Part shown: positions 48,204 through 53,587 of the stretch, in pieces
Numbering within the stretch: position 1 is the stretch's first letter
Layout of the letters: every line of letters begins with the position of its first letter
Origin: Planctomycetota bacterium
GTDB lineage: Bacteria; Planctomycetota; B15-G4
NCBI GenBank assembly: GCA_038212275.1
Contig: JBBQUR010000004.1
Span: 204,744 to 268,743, forward strand
Direction of reading: 5' to 3'
DNA length: 64,000 nt
Notes under the pieces: model-generated
What the model saw: only the letters and a program-made list of their open reading frames with translations
What the model was told of the DNA's origin: nothing
Databases searched by the model: none
Made by a program: the position numbers and the translations under genes

Positions 48204-48280
48204 TCCCCGATAGCTCAGTTGGTTAGAGCATCTGACTGTTAATCAGAGGGTCGGTGGTTCGAGTCCACCTCGGGGAGCCA
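48204..48280 (+). tRNA. tRNA-Asn(GTT)
   Basis: Acceptor TCCCCGA/TCGGGGA, anticodon stem TCTGA/TCAGA with loop CT-GTT-AA, GGTTCGAGTCC T-arm, encoded CCA. Confidence 0.97.
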
Positions 48281-49605
48281 TCGCACTCGAATGCGTCGGC
48301 TCGCGTGGGATCGCGCAAGGCCGCCATCGGCAAGGAGTTACCGCTCAGCGCTGACCGCTGACTGCGTCCCCGGCCCTCGCGCCCTGACGAACCGCCACGC
48401 AGCGTCTCGCGCTCCATTTGCGGTGGCTGGTACGGTGGTTCCCGCGGTGGGTGTTGCGGTGAAACATCAGATGCCTGAGACGCCTCAGCGCCCTCCGTTC
48501 CGGTGGCGCGCTGCTGTGCGACCTGCACGCTGGAGGTCGCCGCTTCGGGCACGTTGGGGACGCTCTGGATCGCCTTGGCCACGTCCGCTCCGTCGAGCTG
48601 GATGTAGTGCTTCATCGTGATCTTGTAGTCCGCGTGGCGCAGCATGCGCTGCGTCATCGCAGGCGAGACACCGAGCCGCGCCAGGTTGGTGCCGAGCGAC
48701 ACGCGCAGCGAGTGCAGGTCCGCAACGCGGCCGTCCACGTCCTTGAGCACGATGCCCGCGTCCTCGAAGTCCGCGCGGCGCTCGTCGTTGCTCGGCATGA
48801 CCGGGAAGACCCGCGCATCGGGACGGAGGATGTCGGGCCGGATGGCAGTGAGCGCATCCTTGAGCTGCGGGTGCAGCGGGAGGACATCGGTCCGGTGGGC
48901 CTTGCCGTCACTGATGGTGAGGGTGCCGATGGCCAGGTCCACGTCGGCCCAGCGCAGGCGGGTCAGCTCGCTGCGCCGCAGGCCGGCGAGCGCAGCGCAC
49001 AGGTACACCGGGCGCCGACCGTGCTTCGCGGCCACGGTCAGCAGGCTCGAGATCTCGTCCCAGGTGAGCGCCCGCCGGATACGCCGGCGGTCACGATTCT
49101 GGTCGAGGCGCGGCAACTGCTTGAGGAGGTTCTCGCGCACGCGGCCGGACTTCACGGCCCAGTTGACGAACGAGACCACGATGGTGCGTTCCATGTTGAC
49201 CGTGGTCGCCGAGCGGCCCAGGTCCCGCAGTGCCTTGAGGTGCCGGGCCAATGCGTCCGGCGTCAGGTCGGAGAGCCGCGCAGCGCCGGTGGCCGCGATG
49301 ATCCGGTTGAGCAGGCGCTGGTTTTCCGAGACGTGGAAGGCTGCCCGCGCGCCGGCGCGCAGGTGCTCGAGGTAGGCGTCCACGTGCCGGAGCAGGGGCA
49401 CGGCGTTCGCCTCGAAGTAGCGATCCTGGCGCGGGTCGATGACGCCTTCACGGCGCAGGGCGGCCTGGGCGTCGAGCTGCGCCCCGATGCGCTCGGCCAC
49501 CTTCCTGTCAGTGGTGCGGCTGGACTTCTCGCGCCGCCGGCCGTCGTGGGTCGTCCAGCCGATGAAGTAGTTGGGGAAACCGGCGCGCTTGAAGACGCTT
49601 GCCAT
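48223..49605 (-). CDS. int: Tyrosine recombinase/integrase
   Basis: AGLRRSEL (R), GK, HSLR, RH, HY catalytic set intact; ORF runs through att core and stops inside the tRNA D-arm. Confidence 0.95.
   Translation of the reverse strand: MASVFKRAGFPNYFIGWTTHDGRRREKSSRTTDRKVAERIGAQLDAQAALRREGVIDPRQDRYFEANAVPLLRHVDAYLEHLRAGARAAFHVSENQRLLNRIIAATGAARLSDLTPDALARHLKALRDLGRSATTVNMERTIVVSFVNWAVKSGRVRENLLKQLPRLDQNRDRRRIRRALTWDEISSLLTVAAKHGRRPVYLCAALAGLRRSELTRLRWADVDLAIGTLTISDGKAHRTDVLPLHPQLKDALTAIRPDILRPDARVFPVMPSNDERRADFEDAGIVLKDVDGRVADLHSLRVSLGTNLARLGVSPAMTQRMLRHADYKITMKHYIQLDGADVAKAIQSVPNVPEAATSSVQVAQQRATGTEGAEASQASDVSPQHPPREPPYQPPQMERETLRGGSSGREGRGRSQRSALSGNSLPMAALRDPTRADAFECDGSPRWTRTTDPLINSQML
48234..48289 (+). 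repeat. att core, tRNA-proximal copy
   Basis: GACTGTTAATC...GGGGAGCCATCGCACTCG identical to 53377-53432; homology resumes after 3 mismatches to 48303. Confidence 0.95.
48418..48465. repeat. Four 12 bp-period direct repeats (core CGGTGG), candidate arm-type sites
   Basis: CGGTGG at 48421, 48433, 48445 and CGGTGA at 48457. Confidence 0.55.
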
Positions 49606-49607
49606 GA

Positions 49608-49832
49608 TCAGCGCTCCCTGTCCGTGCGGACCTTGCGGGCCTCTATCCAGCCCTGCAGGTCGGCGACACAGTAACGCACCGTCCGCCCGATGCGCAGGTG
49701 CGGTATGTCATGAGAAGCGGTCAGACTCCAGAGGCTGCGGGCGCTGATCGCCAGCATCGCGGCGGCCTCCTTGGTGTTCAGCAGGCGCGGTGGGGTGGTC
49801 GGCGGGGGAAGGGGAATTCGTGTGGAGGTCAT
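49608..49832 (-). CDS. Excisionase-like HTH_17 protein
   Basis: LLNTKEAAAMLAISARSLW...IPHLRIGRTVRY..DL..WI; directly upstream of int. Confidence 0.88.
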   Translation of the reverse strand: MTSTRIPLPPPTTPPRLLNTKEAAAMLAISARSLWSLTASHDIPHLRIGRTVRYCVADLQGWIEARKVRTDRER

Positions 49833-50053
49833 CGAACGGTTCCTTTCTCGAGGGGGTGATGGAAGGCGACCTGGCGAGAGCACGGGAGTACTTCCGCTGG
49901 CGGCGTGGGCATGGGTCTGGTGATGGGTGGCGAGAGGTGCGAGGGCCTTGGCCGTGGTGATGGCGATGGCGAGGGCGCCCATCGCGGTGCGTTGACCGCG
50001 TGCAGCGTGCGACTGCGAGGCCGCAGGCGAGGCGTGACGGTGATCGTGCTCAT
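49829..50053 (-). CDS. Small Pro-rich hypothetical protein
   Basis: ATGA overlaps with both neighbours. Confidence 0.4.
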   Translation of the reverse strand: MSTITVTPRLRPRSRTLHAVNAPRWAPSPSPSPRPRPSHLSPPITRPMPTPPAEVLPCSRQVAFHHPLEKGTVR

Positions 50054-50568
50054 GGGTGCGCGACCTGCTGCTCGAGTGCGGCGCAGCGAACCAGGAGGTC
50101 CGACGCCAGGTCCGCAAGAGCAGCCTCCCAACCCGGAACGCTGAAGCATCCAGGCGAGCGTGCGTCGGAGTGCGCCCAGAGGATCCGGTCTGCGAGCGCC
50201 AGCGGAACGTCTAGGCGGTCGAGATGCATCGGCTCGCCGGTCAGGGCGTCATGGGCCTCTCCGGACGCGTAGCCGCCCGGTTCGGTGATCGCTGCCCGGC
50301 CTCGTGGGGAGTACGTGCCGTTCAGGTTGCTGCTGTCCATGCAGGAAGCTCCAAGGCTGAGGTCAGGTGCTGCTGCCGGCCGACTCAGCCTCTTTCGCCG
50401 GCACGGAAATGCGGTGTGTCGTTCGTGGTCGGCCTCGTCGGCGTGGGGCGCGAGAGGGCCGGCCGTAGCTGCTGCGAAGGAGTCCGCGAGCCACCGCGCA
50501 AGCTCCGCCGAGCATGTGCTCGGGTGCGGCGTGGCCGGACCGGTGCAGCGACTGGGCAGAGCGATCAT
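50050..50568 (-). CDS. Hypothetical protein (alternative start 50340)
   Basis: ATG overlaps SpoVG-like stop, stop overlaps next ATG. Confidence 0.45.
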   Translation of the reverse strand: MIALPSRCTGPATPHPSTCSAELARWLADSFAAATAGPLAPHADEADHERHTAFPCRRKRLSRPAAAPDLSLGASCMDSSNLNGTYSPRGRAAITEPGGYASGEAHDALTGEPMHLDRLDVPLALADRILWAHSDARSPGCFSVPGWEAALADLASDLLVRCAALEQQVAHP

Positions 50569-50894
50569 CGATCGGGTCCCGCAGGCGCTGCCGGCGCGGA
50601 TGGTGCTGGCGCCGTACTGAACTGCAGACGCAGTGCCGCAAAGACCTGGCGCTCGACGTCACGGCGAGCCGCATCCGAGATCGGGCGGATGTAGGCGTGC
50701 TGCTTTCCGGACGCATCGCGCCGTTCCGGGAATGAGAGCACGAGGTCACCGGCGCGGGTGCGACGGAGCGTGATCCCGTCGAGCTTCACCGCCCCGTTGA
50801 GCAGGAAGCTGACCCAGCCCAACAGGCCCAGAGCGCGCTCGGCATCCGGCGCGGCAATGAAGCGGATCTCGGAGACGTGGAGGTCAGGCTTCAC
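50565..50894 (-). CDS. SpoVG-like nucleic-acid-binding protein
   Basis: 'LLGWVSFLLNGAVKLDGITLRR...LVLSFPERRD..G....YIRPI...RR..E..V'; GGAGG SD. Confidence 0.75.
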   Translation of the reverse strand: MKPDLHVSEIRFIAAPDAERALGLLGWVSFLLNGAVKLDGITLRRTRAGDLVLSFPERRDASGKQHAYIRPISDAARRDVERQVFAALRLQFSTAPAPSAPAAPAGPDR

Positions 50895-51037
50895 GCGCTA
50901 CCTCCGCGCTCACGCATCCGCAGGGGTTTTCGATGTGGTGTCGCGACGCGAGAGGAGGCGCCTGATGCCGCAGCACGAGCGGCGGCGCTTCCGGCATGGG
51001 ATCGGGCGCGAGCTCGACAACTGGCCGTTCCGGCATC

Positions 51038-51260
51038 TCAGCGTCCATCGCTCTGCCCCGTCGCCACGTTCTTCCGGATGTCGTCCAGCACCGCGTCGGC
51101 GTTGAGTTGGCTGGAGACGCTCGCGAGCGCGCCGACGAGGATCTGGATCTCCGCTTCCGAGGCGTTGCCTCGCACGCCTGCCTCCAGCGCTTCCGCGGCT
51201 CGGTCGACCTCATCGATGTCTATGTGCCGCGTGCCGTCGCCCCATGCGTCGGAAGCGACG
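51038..51260 (-). pseudogene. Possible 3' remnant of an island gene
   Basis: Globular-looking helical C-terminus; upstream frame runs into the antisense of the helicase fragment. Confidence 0.35.
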
Positions 51261-51265
51261 GAAGC

Positions 51266-52936
51266 GTCGCCACGCAGCGCCGCGCCGAGAACGCGCTCGA
51301 GCAGTGGCGCGCCCACGCGGGTCTCGACGCGCGGACGCTGGGCTTCTGCGTGTCGCAGAGGCATGCCGAGTTCATGAAGGCGTACTTCAGCCAACGGGGG
51401 GTAAGGGCGGCGGCCGTGCATTCAGGCGCAGGGAGCGATCCGCGCGCCCTCTCGCTCGAACAACTCGAGGCCGGCGCGCTGGACATCGTCTTCTGCGTGG
51501 ACATGTTCAACGAGGGCGTGGACCTGCCCTCCGTTGACGCCATCCTGATGCTGCGGCCCACCGAGTCGCGCACCCTCTGGCTCCAGCAGGTCGGACGCGG
51601 CCTGCGCCAAGTGGCTGGAAAGACACTTCGGATCGTGGACTACATCGGCAACCACCGCACCTTCCTGCAAGGCGCGGTCGCGTTGCTCCCGCTGGGCAAC
51701 GAGACGCCGGCCGGGCTGGTTGCGGCACTCAAGCGTCTCGAGGATGGGGAGCAACTCCTGCCCGATGGCTGCGCGATCACCTACGACCTGCGCGCGATGG
51801 AGATTCTGCGCGCCCTGATCCCGGTAGCCCAGGGCCGCGAGGCAGTCCGTCTCTGGTACGAGGACTTTCGCGACCGGCACGGCGTGCGGCCGACAGCCTC
51901 GGAAGCGTGGCACGCTGGTTACGACCCAGGAACAGTTCGCAAGCACGACGGCTCGTGGTTGGGCTTCGTCCGAGGGATGGGGGACCTGGCGACGTCGGAG
52001 GCCGCCGCGCTGGCCGCGAATCGCGACTACTTCGCCGACCTCGAAACCACGCCCATGACGCGCAGCTTCAAGATGCTGCTGCTGCAGGCATGGATCGCGG
52101 AGGGCTCGTTCCCTGGGCCAATCGGCATCGATGCACTAGTACGCGCCACCAGCGGGCAGACACTCGGTTCCGCAGCACTTCTGGCCGACGTGGGTGATGC
52201 GCGAACATCCCCACCTGCCTTGCGCCGACTGCTCGAGACAAACCCGATCGCTGCATGGATAGGTGGCAAGGGCACGGCGAGCGGGCCGTACTTCGCCTAC
52301 GACGGCGTGAGCCTGTCGAGTCGTCTGAATGGTCAGGGTGAACACGGCGCGACGCTGAGCGACCTGACGCGGGAGGTAGTCGAGTGGCGCCTAGCGCAGT
52401 ACCTGGGACTCCCTCGCACTGGGGACGAGCCGAGCGCAGTGCCTGAGAGTGGCGCTCCCGAAGCAGCCGTACCACCGAACCTCTGGCAGGAGTTCATGCG
52501 AGAACAGATCCCGGGACTCTGGGGACTTCCATTCCAGGCCAACCTCTGGCGGCAGGGCTTCGTTCAGCGAGGCGGGCGCATGTTCCTGCTCGTCACGCTC
52601 GAGAAGGCGAACTTGCCTTCCGAACATCGCTACGACGACAAGTTCGTCGGTCCGGATCAGTTCGAGTGGCAGAGCCAGAATCGAACCTCTCGCGCATCCA
52701 AGCCCGGCCAGGACATCGCGCAGCACAAGGCACGCGGTATTCCGGTTCACCTCTTCGTACGACGCACCAAGAAGACCCAGCGCGGAACCGCGTGCCCATT
52801 CACCTACTGCGGCGAGTTGGAGTATTTGAGCTGGGAGCGGGACAACCCCGTCACCGTCCAGTGGAGACTAATGGCGCCGGTCCCGGGTCGCCTGTGGGGT
52901 GGGCTCAAGGTCCAGCCGCCGGGAACTGGCGCCTGA
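51266..52936 (+). pseudogene. 5'-truncated SF2 helicase-C + DUF3427 protein (SauUSI-like PLD/helicase family)
   Basis: TLGFCVS..HAEFM, VDMFNEGVDLP, LRPTES, QQVGRGLR, FEWQSQN, VHLFVR; Walker A/DEAH and PLD domains absent. Confidence 0.8.
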
Positions 52937-53116
52937 AGCCACGGGATCGCGTGGCTGCCGGCGGGCCCCGTCGCCCGGCTGGCTCACGAGGGGTGCGAAT
53001 CGTCGCAGCATGTCACCGGGAAGGCGGCCTCGTCCCGCCGAACCAACCGCGATTCGACGTCGGCACAGTCGTGAGCATCCCCGCGCCCGGCTCGCCCCGC
53101 ACCCGCTGTGGGGTTC

Positions 53117-53377
53117 TCAGTGCCCGACACGCAGCGCCCGAACCATCTCCGCGATCCCAACGCGCAGGGCTGGCGGCAGACTGTTCCAGGCCGCCACGAC
53201 GGTAGCGAGTTCAGGGTCGATGGCGGTGCCTTCGAGCTCGCCCGAAGGGGTGAGCAAGGCCTCCATTTCGAGGTTGCGTAGGCTGGCGCGATCGCCGCCT
53301 TCCGGCGCCTGAAGTGAAGCGCTGCAAGGTACGAGTGCATCAGCACTTGCAGCAATCTCCTCGGATGCCGCGGGCGG
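53117..53377 (-). CDS. Detached in-frame C-terminal segment of the integrase (86 codons)
   Basis: Same frame across the att core as int (DGSPRWTRTTDPLINS); ends DPELATVVAAWNSLPPALRVGIAEMVRA. Confidence 0.6.
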   Translation of the reverse strand, partial: PPAASEEIAASADALVPCSASLQAPEGGDRASLRNLEMEALLTPSGELEGTAIDPELATVVAAWNSLPPALRVGIAEMVRALRVGH

Positions 53378-53432
53378 ACTGTTAATCAGAGGGTCGGTGG
53401 TTCGAGTCCACCTCGGGGAGCCATCGCACTCG
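53377..53432 (+). repeat. att core, distal copy (displaced 3' part of tRNA-Asn)
   Basis: Identical to 48234-48289; lacks tRNA 5' half. Confidence 0.95.
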
Positions 53433-53587
53433 GCGGCGTCGGCTCGTAGCGATTTCCGAGTCCGTCGGTAGCCAGTTGCGACACCACGGCCTCGGAGGCT
53501 TTTCATCGGGCCGCGGCCGGCATTCCTGCACGGCCTGGCGTTGGCTGCCCTGCGGATGGCGGAGACCATGCGCGGGGCGCGCGGCGC

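Follow-up and report, generated by a model that had tools for sequence, protein, structure and literature searches.

A Planctomycetota integrase gene that spans its own attachment site and is predicted to lose a conserved C-terminal tail on integration

Introduction

In a contig of a Planctomycetota bacterium (GCA_038212275.1, JBBQUR010000004.1), a tyrosine integrase gene runs through the attachment core of its own element, and the second copy of the core, at the far end of the element, continues in the same reading frame. The locus raises the question of whether the integrase exchanges its own C-terminus when the element integrates, or whether the open frame at the far end is an accident of GC-rich DNA. 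Here we analyse the 64,000-nucleotide stretch that holds this locus (the window) together with related islands of the phylum.

The element and its tRNA target

The single tRNA that ARAGORN finds in the window is tRNA-Asn(gtt), on the + strand at 48204-48280. A repeat search returned a direct repeat of 70 nt with 96% identity (48234-48303 and 53377-53446), in which the first 56 nt are exact (48234-48289 = 53377-53432) and are followed by three mismatches and 11 identical bases. The extra 14 bp may, as a weak suggestion, reflect attP/attB homology that extends past the core, or be left over from an earlier element. An older integrase remnant to the right of attR was considered and rejected, the match within the same genome coming almost wholly from 24 core-encoded residues. 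The segment 48290-53376, with one copy of the core, reads as a 5.1-kb integrative element at the 3′ end of tRNA-Asn, the crossover being placed by the repeats rather than by observed junctions. The features of the locus are collected in Table 1.

Table 1. Features of the integrated element and its target in the window.
Feature	Position	Strand	Remarks
Intact tRNA-Asn(gtt), integration target	48204..48280	+	ARAGORN; element-side repeat provides its 3′ part
Integrated-form int, 460 aa, predicted lambda-type tyrosine recombinase	48223..49605	-	~100-aa low-complexity linker, antisense through the core
attL core	48234..48289		56/56 bp match to the distal copy; anticodon loop to CCA of the tRNA, plus 9 bp
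HTH_17/excisionase-like gene	49608..50117	-	Directly upstream of int; HTH at residues 112-161; true start uncertain
Two ORFs, 172 and 109 aa, no assigned function	50050..50894	-	Second: SpoVG match under the Pfam cut-off
5′-truncated helicase (Helicase_C + DUF3427)	50996..52936	+	Pfam; phrog_16 alignment begins at position 480 of the 986-position profile
Detached integrase tail: 50-aa linker, conserved motif and stop	53117..53376	-	Motif 53120-53221; in frame with the core
attR core, displaced tRNA-Asn 3′ part	53377..53432		Repeat comparison
14 bp past the attR core	53433..53446		11 match the int side of attL

The integrase gene and the frame at the distal repeat

The 460-aa ORF of the integrated form ends in DGSPRWTRTTDPLINSQML before a TAA stop at 48223-48225, which is located in the tRNA 5′ half, beyond the repeat; the final three residues (QML) and the stop are thus tRNA 5′ half sequence. 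The core (48234-48289) encodes residues 439-457 of the 460, and the catalytic tyrosine lies at about residue 335. PF00589 matches residues 180-338 with 54.2 bits, against a curated cut-off of 27.1, and is the sole Pfam match at E ≤ 0.01, with no match to PF16795. Read at nearly invariant columns of a 65-sequence alignment (A3), the catalytic set is complete, including R (LAGLRRSE), K (GKAHR), HxxR (LHSLR), H (MLRHAD), and Y (MKHYIQL), and all of these residues lie before position 340, about 100 residues ahead of the core. The AF2 model of a homologue (P0008, 48% identical) aligns with lambda Int (1z1b_A) with a Z of 18.2 and an rmsd of 11.9 over 315 aligned residues, spanning model residues 1-349 and thus not reaching the tail. 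On this model of the homologue, with which alone the fold was tested, the integrase is composed of arm-binding, core-binding, and catalytic domains of the lambda type.

At the other end of the element, an ORF on the - strand (53117..53569) reads the distal repeat in the int frame (ECDGSPRWTRTTDPLINS) and extends 86 residues further, ending in DPELATVVAAWNSLPPALRVGIAEMVRALRVGH before a stop. The predicted lengths are 457+86=543 aa for the circle and 460 aa for the integrated form, and integration would exchange the 86 C-terminal residues for QML. This layout had been described in the initial annotation: an integrase ORF crossing the 56 bp core and taking its stop from the host half of tRNA-Asn, a distal core in the same frame with 86 open codons, and an R-K-HxxR-H-Y set untouched in both forms; each of these statements held. 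Its caution that such a frame may arise by chance in GC-rich DNA was also well placed, as 43% of 86-codon stretches in the six frames of the window (68% GC) are free of stops. The single locus is therefore not significant alone, and it is the comparative counts that carry the case.

In-frame junctions across related islands

We surveyed 40 genome regions, each reaching at most 20 kb downstream from a tail, together with two viral contigs that carry a tail. In each of the counted islands (n = 21, window excluded), an integrase lies 4.9-18.4 kb downstream of the tail and on its strand, and a direct repeat is present. Outside the island count stand 19-21 of the 40 genome regions, including 14 without an integrase on the tail strand in the sequence examined and 4 at a contig end, along with two regions with an integrase but no repeat and one adjacent junction (L037). 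By an automatic test, the frames of int and tail agree, and neither meets a stop within the core, in 20 of these 21 islands, which are not independent samples. In the 21st (L088), the longest repeat lies in a flanking remnant; inspection showed one shared reading frame, with the tRNA core translated as VGQAGLE on either side, bringing the count to 21/21. The islands occupy at least 14 different tRNA or tmRNA genes in both orientations, a spread that speaks against a single element recently copied. Between the T-arm of the tRNA and the motif, no stop interrupts the tail frame at 18/18 loci; the other two frames are open at 0/18 and 3/18 (3/36). Integrase, core, and tail are adjacent on genome contigs in L037 and in a second L074 junction, both one base out of frame.

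These counts contradict the reading of a chance frame, according to which the opening over the distal att is a product of base composition and the tail is no part of the integrase. The 43% openness in the window speaks for it, as do long chance frames in relatives, such as one of 468 aa that precedes the L030 tail and holds no integrase-like sequence. However, phase agreement in 20/21 other islands, where one in three is expected, an open tail frame at 18/18 loci against 3/36 control frames, and the existence of contiguous Int-tail proteins leave it a very low probability. Judged from these sequences, an in-frame open junction has been selected across many tRNA targets, well beyond the one-in-three rate that the initial annotation had set as its yardstick.

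A conserved, predicted two-helix tail

The tail has a consensus of ~30 residues, DPxLAxVVxAWxxLPxAxRAGIxAMVxAA. A profile (A1) built from 21 tails matches 99/401 genomes of the phylum at E ≤ 0.01, 69/244 of the high-quality ones, and 422 proteins of the protein collection at the same threshold. The phylum-wide search suggested in the initial annotation thus finds the motif conserved and, in the islands, beside tRNA or tmRNA att sites. The window tail itself scores E 2.1e-17, second best among all tails found. Among 133 proteins of the tail search, 132 match the profile; the motif lies ≤25 aa from the C-terminal end in 121 of the 132, and a variable 0-25 residues follow it. A search for longer homologues with a single tail sequence found none, but the profile search did return proteins. 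The motif has no match in PHROGs, Pfam, or 50,697 phage records, and the best hit of the profile against PDB sequences has an E of 0.68.

In the AF2 model of P0008, the pLDDT is >90 in the core to about residue 340, falls to ~76 by 360, stays <50 in the linker (380-475), and rises to 86-92 in two tail helices at 480-491 and 494-510. The tail, whose motif had been called helical from its letters, is accordingly predicted to form a two-helix (helix-turn-helix) hairpin. A complex prediction for two tail copies, run without controls, scored 0.22 against a mark of 0.42.

Mean pairwise differences at codon positions 1, 2, and 3 of 29 tail loci are 0.41, 0.26, and 0.57, and the pN/pS is 0.54, at saturation; this is a coding pattern, and the sequence data mark the tail as a genuine protein module of wide occurrence. 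The same numbers bear on the alternative that the conserved entity is DNA, namely a P′ arm of attP with arm-type integrase or Xis sites, with the peptide as a by-product. Arm sites are expected beside the core because this lambda-like integrase begins with an arm-type domain, the motif is located merely 75-290 nt off the T-arm, and, as a 1999 abstract on Mx8 reportedly states, attP function in that phage needs sequences within int on both sides of the core. Yet third codon positions are the most variable and second positions the least, the tail frame stays open, and the motif is common to integrase clades with different targets. Arm-like words in the two arms of the window are also not above chance (five shared 9-mers against 1.8 expected, one 10-mer against 0.47). 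We consider a pure DNA arm very improbable, and the roles of the tail as a protein and as part of a P′ arm are not exclusive.

Tail and integrase share one ORF in 6/120 integrase homologues. Five further full-length fusions occur in other integrase clades (P0172, P0181, P0232, P0234, and P0250), each with its catalytic domain and tail separated by a tRNA-like peptide. In P0218, an Xre-type HTH is joined straight to the tail with no tRNA-like peptide; hence, the hairpin can serve another DNA-binding protein. Tail-only proteins of 70-190 aa occur in Phycisphaerales and Isosphaeraceae MAGs, usually with a tRNA-derived peptide at the start, and hundreds of ORFs of this kind (84-190 aa) are listed as gene calls, which supports the earlier suggestion that orphan hypothetical peptides of this kind are detached integrase tails. 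These short ORFs, and P0218, would also suit a separate small protein, for example a regulator, expressed from the integrated element, with the circle fusion being incidental. Against this, there is no conserved start, as just 3/21 islands have an in-frame ATG in the stretch from core to motif; what precedes the core is host DNA or a tRNA and varies by island; and the selected phase with the integrase is left unexplained. A separate product is accordingly improbable.

Proposed mechanism and state of the window copy

The best explanation as a whole, to which we assign a probability of roughly 0.8, is that the integrase ORF spans attP, that the circle encodes a tailed Int, and that integration removes the hairpin. 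The int frame would pass from the catalytic tyrosine through a disordered linker, the attP core (the tRNA 3′ part read antisense), and ~50 linker residues to the hairpin. With the crossover falling within the int ORF, the circle would encode an Int of 543 aa with the hairpin; the integrated form would encode the Int of 460 aa, with the hairpin stranded without a start at the opposite end of the element. By analogy with IntP and IntX of Mx8, whose activities reportedly differ, we infer a similar difference between the isoforms here. The circle form, with its tail, may be the proficient integrase; the tail-less chromosomal form may be weaker and rely on the neighbouring excisionase-like HTH protein, so that the integrated state would be stabilised. 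The hairpin might act by tethered oligomerisation, by contact with the core or Xis, or through a host factor. The role proposed for it in the initial annotation, that of a state sensor for directionality, stability, or oligomerisation, is likewise conjectural.

A further-reaching proposal, which is doubtful at present, is that the two-helix tail serves across Planctomycetota as a portable module of the circular form alone and decides which way recombination runs, either by tethering Int protomers or through a recruited partner. If this were true, one regulatory C-terminus would be kept while target sites change, because the linker can be re-written by the targeted tRNA (on either strand) or tmRNA. 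The primary structure of Int would in that case reflect the state of its DNA (circular, integrated as a single copy, or in a tandem array), and P0218 would hint that the same module serves repressor-like proteins in an integration-dependent switch.

The family mechanism may be real and the window copy nevertheless a decaying, immobile remnant in which the switch is off. The helicase is without its N-terminal motor half, from which we infer a deletion in the cargo, and the AAA_25 and HTH_36 genes present in 6/10 relatives scanned are absent from the element in the window, as is any replication-type gene; with its cargo damaged in this way, the copy may no longer move. The stretch occurs in two DNA runs of one study, one of which may be the source, and no RNA run is listed for it. 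De Bruijn contigs of these two runs give the island a depth of 26.5, equal to the right flank and near the 29.4 of the left flank, and include no joint between the att copies, but these contigs break at repeats and are unable to show a circle or an empty site. On the other side, the cores are identical over 56/56 positions, int is an unbroken ORF that keeps every catalytic residue, the tail is the second-best scorer (E 2.1e-17), and the gene directly upstream is excisionase-like (PF12728, E 4.5e-11; phrog_66 'excisionase and transcriptional regulator', E 2.2e-9). We regard a dead copy as possible, if on the unlikely side.

To our knowledge, Mx8 has been the lone case of a bacterial integrase that rewrites its own C-terminus by its own reaction. 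The window locus joins to it a large, diverse Planctomycetota family with a short, conserved, and readily assayed tail, found in a quarter of the sampled genomes and at no fewer than 14 targets, which offers a tractable system for studying the role of the tail. Hundreds of 'hypothetical protein' calls beside tRNA fragments are explained as detached integrase ends, and the tail provides island-mapping software with a precise marker of the far end.

Comparison with known systems

In the literature on self-split integrases in Planctomycetota or other bacteria, we found only the Mx8, SSV-type, and repressor-type cases, and a 2021 review describes self-disrupting recombinases as exclusive to archaea (PMC8371274). 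No paper on the planctomycete family and its tail was found, but the principle is not new because Mx8 IntP/IntX does likewise. The precedents named in the initial annotation, SSV1-type integrases (PMC8371274) and the mycobacteriophage repressor (PMC3694055), are sound; Mx8 was left out, and the novelty was therefore overrated.

In the SSV-type integrases of SSV1, pTN3, and pT26-2, attP is likewise situated in the integrase ORF and the gene is split by integration, but the same review describes a split that parts Int(N) from the catalytic Int(C), with fragments reported inactive (PMC8371274). In the window, the enzyme remains whole: the split falls ~100 residues past the catalytic tyrosine, PF16795 finds no match, and the tail alone is lost. 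The mycobacteriophages BPs, Brujita, and their relatives also carry attP in an ORF, and integration alters the C-terminus of the protein as a switch. According to PMC3694055, however, the gene is that of the repressor, from which a C-terminal degradation tag is removed, and their Int keeps its own tag through integration. Here it is the int gene that is altered, and 0-25 variable residues after the motif distinguish the tail from an extreme C-terminal tag. Lambda Int shares the three-domain heterobivalent architecture, as modelled for P0008, but lambda int ends soon past the catalytic tyrosine and lies beside attP rather than across it.

The closest arrangement is that of the Myxococcus phage Mx8, in which attP lies within int; on integration the gene acquires a different 3′ end, and Int is not inactivated (PMC6070905, PMC4383910). 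In both systems attP falls within a tyrosine integrase ORF, past the stretch for the catalytic domain, and the 3′ part of the targeted tRNA gene is read antisense, giving STGLEPV in Mx8 and WTRTTDPLINS here; the Mx8 Int sequence has the same layout, with STGLEPV followed by ~110 aa. An HTH gene lies directly upstream of int (uoi in Mx8, the HTH_17 gene here), and the integrated int receives a short new 3′ end that spares the enzyme, as PMC6070905 has it for Mx8. The differences are equally clear. Kinship in sequence reaches the superfamily only (BLASTP E 0.22), and the Mx8 Int tail is without the planctomycete motif. Mx8 is a 49.5-kb tailed phage, in contrast to islands of 5-18 kb with AAA_25/HTH_36 genes and restriction or defence cargo, and the planctomycete tail is a short module whose conservation extends over different integrase clades. 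The window integrase is thus arranged like Mx8 IntP/IntX while standing outside the Mx8 sequence family, and by analogy it may resemble Mx8 in activity as well.

Anatomy of the tRNA-Asn Element

Two copies of a direct repeat flank an int gene and its neighbors beside tRNA-Asn. The copies share 56 identical bases (48234-48289 = 53377-53432; hereafter the core), followed by three mismatches and 11 further identical bases, as read directly from the sequence. The left copy of the core (attL) consists of the 3' part of the intact tRNA-Asn plus 9 bp, and the right copy (attR) is a displaced tRNA fragment in which ARAGORN called no tRNA. Flanking repeats of this kind typically mark an element that has integrated at the 3' end of a tRNA gene, here an element of 5.1 kb.

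Features of the element integrated at tRNA-Asn (window positions)
Feature	Position	Strand	Remarks
tRNA-Asn(gtt)	48204-48280	+	ARAGORN; sole tRNA gene within the window
Direct repeat	48234-48303 / 53377-53446		70 nt, 96%; repeat search
Integrase (Int) ORF, 460 aa	48223..49605	-	PF00589 at residues 180-338; ORF and Pfam scan; adjoins tRNA-Asn
Int stop codon TAA	48223-48225	-	Inside the tRNA-Asn 5' half
ORF through distal core, same frame as Int	53117..53569	-	86 residues onward inside the element, ending ...DPELATVVAAWNSLPPALRVGIAEMVRALRVGH
HTH_17 gene (PF12728)			Directly upstream of int; matches PHROG 66 'excisionase and transcriptional regulator'
Helicase, Helicase_C + DUF3427	50996-52936	+	Without N-terminal motor half; largest island gene

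The catalytic tyrosine of Int lies in MKHYIQL, at about residue 335, and ~100 low-complexity residues continue past it in the same frame. The core is read antisense by the Int frame as ECDGSPRWTRTTDPLINS, and QML adds three more codons before the stop. The initial annotation had described an Int gene split by its own att site, encoding 457 + 86 = 543 aa in the circle and 460 aa when integrated; its coordinates and counts for the ORF, the repeat and the reading of the core were all correct.

The remaining genes of the element are two ORFs without known function and the helicase without its N-terminal half (Pfam and PHROGs). The match of the helicase to PHROG 16 starts only at profile position 480 of 986, and the missing half suggests that an internal part of the element was deleted. 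The copy in the window looks partly decayed; despite this, it has identical cores, an intact int and the second-best match to the tail profile described below. Just outside the attR core, 11 of the 14 bp at 53433-53446 resemble the integrase linker on the int side, and in the related island L088 (positions 1200-1400) a 37-nt exact integrase-linker stretch with a 1-nt frameshift lies outside attR. Such linker-like DNA at both loci suggests that the same tRNA may have been occupied serially by related elements.

Reading Frame across the Core in Related Islands

The initial annotation had warned that an 86-codon open frame can arise by chance in GC-rich DNA. This caution was justified, as 43% of the 86-codon stretches in the window (68% GC) have no stop when all six frames are counted. 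Combined with a 1-in-3 chance of equal phase, the locus alone is unremarkable and no more than chance; hence, the question had to be decided from relatives.

For 40 tails in genomes we took as much as 20 kb of downstream DNA, together with two tail-bearing viral contigs (L059 and L065, from 17 viral loci); the tail is the conserved C-terminal motif that Int would lose upon integration. Wherever a region had an integrase on the same strand, the 3' end of the integrase gene was compared with the DNA upstream of the tail, the longest stretch repeated exactly in the two was identified, and the phases of its copies were compared. Besides the window, 21 islands of 4.9-18.4 kb were resolved (20 genome islands and one viral contig), with at least 14 different tRNA or tmRNA genes as targets, in antisense and sense and at 3' and 5' ends. 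The check proposed initially, namely whether excision fuses the tail in frame more often than 1 in 3, was borne out: in 20 of the 21 islands, the two copies have the core in equal phase and neither frame is interrupted by a stop within it. At a 1-in-3 chance per island, this has a probability of about 4e-9, although the islands are not independent. The outlier is L088, where the longest repeat falls in an integrase-linker remnant outside attR; on inspection, its tRNA-Met-derived core reads VGQAGLE on both sides and is also in frame. At L075:15437-15815, L065:9263-9339 and L090, the targets of the family include a tmRNA gene; at two of these loci a tRNA is targeted in its 5' part, read in sense, and the in-frame rule is kept in all these geometries.

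Of the 40 genome regions, 19 yielded no such island, with one region falling in two of four classes: 14 such regions had no integrase on the strand of the tail within the fetched DNA, 4 ended at the contig end, two (L047 and L079) had an integrase and no repeat, and in L037 the integrase and tail are adjacent in different frames. On two genome contigs (L037:1000-1560 and L074:12380-12978), the integrase, a tRNA-like core and the tail are adjacent; these are attP-like or tandem-array junctions. In both adjacent junctions, L037 and the second one of L074 (n = 2), the tail frame is offset by one base from that of the integrase, which the fusion of tail and integrase does not explain.

Three independent checks at the DNA level agree with this fusion. 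A strict T-arm pattern is found within 500 nt upstream of the tail in 18 of 28 tail loci, and the interval from T-arm to motif is open in the tail frame in 18/18 of these, compared with 0/18 and 3/18 in the other two frames. With L088 excluded, the window and 20 other islands were checked for an ATG in frame between core and motif; only three of these 21 have one and, judged by this count, the tail itself lacks a conserved start. From core to motif, the linker has 17-61 residues and is of low complexity. At the level of sequence, the relatives show that the in-frame open junction is kept across many target changes and that the crossover core is located inside the int ORF. The structural interpretation in the initial annotation, in which a tail is added to or removed from Int, thus gains support from the phases and open frames of the relatives.

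The Tail as a Protein Module of the Integrase

An exhaustive search with a 107-aa att-plus-tail query returned 17 proteins at E <= 1e-3, 16 of which are 70-126 aa long with the motif at the C-end; in most, the N-terminus is a peptide derived from a tRNA, for instance WTRTxDPLI(N/K)S or KRAKGFEPSTFSLEG. A tail profile (A1) was built from 21 tails and has the consensus DPxLAxVVxAWxxLPxAxRAGIxAMVxAA. It matches in 99 of 401 sampled genomes of the phylum (E <= 0.01 per genome), including 69 of 244 high-quality genomes, and in 85 of 288 genera. In the protein collection it finds 422 proteins at E <= 0.01, and the named ones are 'hypothetical protein' entries from MAGs of Phycisphaerales and Isosphaeraceae. 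Of 133 tail-search proteins examined, the profile recognizes 132, and 121 of these 132 have the motif no more than 25 residues from the C-end. Mean pairwise differences among 29 loci amount to 0.41, 0.26 and 0.57 at the first, second and third codon positions, and pN/pS is 0.54 with pS saturated. By these measures the variation has the pattern of translated sequence, not of a DNA site, and the comparisons show the tail as a real, widespread and conserved translated module.

The short ORFs P0129 and P0138 (100 and 107 aa) carry two tail motifs in tandem, which are probably stacked remnants of successive insertions. A 3.5-Mb genome (G065) has seven tail matches, each on a separate short contig; tail elements can hence be numerous within one genome and apparently break assemblies. 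A 9.5-kb IMG/VR contig (L055:4499-6307) has a 603-aa integrase ORF that passes through KRAKGIEPSTFSLEG and extends to a diverged tail-like stretch (...LAALPPGTLAVLRSILSAL...) beyond the reach of the profile, and the extent of the tail family may exceed what the profile indicates.

The profile places the tail in the same ORF in six of the best 120 integrase homologues (P0008, P0022, P0042, P0049, P0084 and P0107), and 76 of these 120 end in tRNA-like peptides by rough patterns of our own making, as integrated forms of Int would. The tail search also gave five full-length PF00589 proteins from other integrase clades (P0172, P0181, P0232, P0234 and P0250), in each of which a tRNA-like peptide separates the catalytic domain from the tail. 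Judging from these contiguous proteins, the tail belongs to the integrase.

Predicted Structure of the Tailed Integrase

P0008, a contiguous homologue of 511 aa that shares 48% identity with the Int of the window, was modeled using AF2 and a 65-row alignment. The pLDDT is above 90 to about residue 340 and ~76 by residue 360, the linker (residues 380-475) is disordered with pLDDT below 50, and the tail forms two helices (480-491 and 494-510) with pLDDT 86-92. The core of the model (residues 1-349) aligns with full-length lambda integrase 1z1b_A with a Z of 18.2 and an rmsd of 11.9 over 315 aligned residues. On this alignment of model residues 1-349, the integrase is predicted to be an arm-binding, heterobivalent enzyme.

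The second helix of the tail has a small residue at every fourth position. The 125-aa metagenomic protein P0218 joins the tail motif directly to an Xre-type HTH (PF13560; PHROG transcriptional repressor families) and lacks an intervening tRNA-like peptide; repressor-like proteins may also make use of the hairpin. The small-residue spacing, the long flexible tether and this fusion fit a tail that would act as a tethered helix-packing or oligomerisation module.

Related Islands and Comparison with Known Systems

A Pfam scan of ten related islands identified AAA_25 (four islands) or HTH_36 (two islands) next to int; HTH_17 genes are also present, and the cargo is of the restriction-modification, HEPN or SRAP kind. 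Together the islands form a family of small integrative elements. The relatives are rich in restriction and defence cargo, such as a Type ISP enzyme, an Eco57I/MmeI-like methylase-nuclease, a type I R-subunit fragment and a HEPN domain at L035:11430-16310, L033:4459-8058 and L049:16673-18421.

We propose that the circle would encode the tailed 543-aa Int as the proficient integrase, and that the chromosome would encode the tail-less 460-aa Int, which may be weaker or dependent on excisionase (Xis). A chromosomal Int of this kind would stabilise integration, as reported for the Myxococcus phage Mx8. In Mx8, a 112-residue tail is reportedly replaced by 13 residues, and the prophage form IntX is said to be less active (work of Tojo in 1996 and Magrini in 1999). 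The Mx8 record likewise has a catalytic domain, then ...STGLEPV... (tRNA antisense) and then about 110 residues, and its HTH gene uoi lies upstream of int, as does the HTH_17 gene in the window. However, the Int of the window has no sequence relationship to Mx8 Int beyond the superfamily (E 0.22), and neither Mx8 Int nor any of 50,697 phage records contains the planctomycete tail motif. According to a review (PMC6070905), attP of Mx8 lies within the int coding sequence and integration makes a new int 3' end, which leaves the integrase active, alters its behavior and controls excision. In contrast, the split of archaeal SSV-type integrases, as described in PMC8371274, parts the catalytic domain from the N-terminal part, and the gene spanning attP in the mycobacteriophage systems is that of the repressor (PMC3694055). 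The literature searched contained no account of the planctomycete family or of its tail and, as far as that literature shows, the family is unpublished; the arrangement that it presents is Mx8-like.
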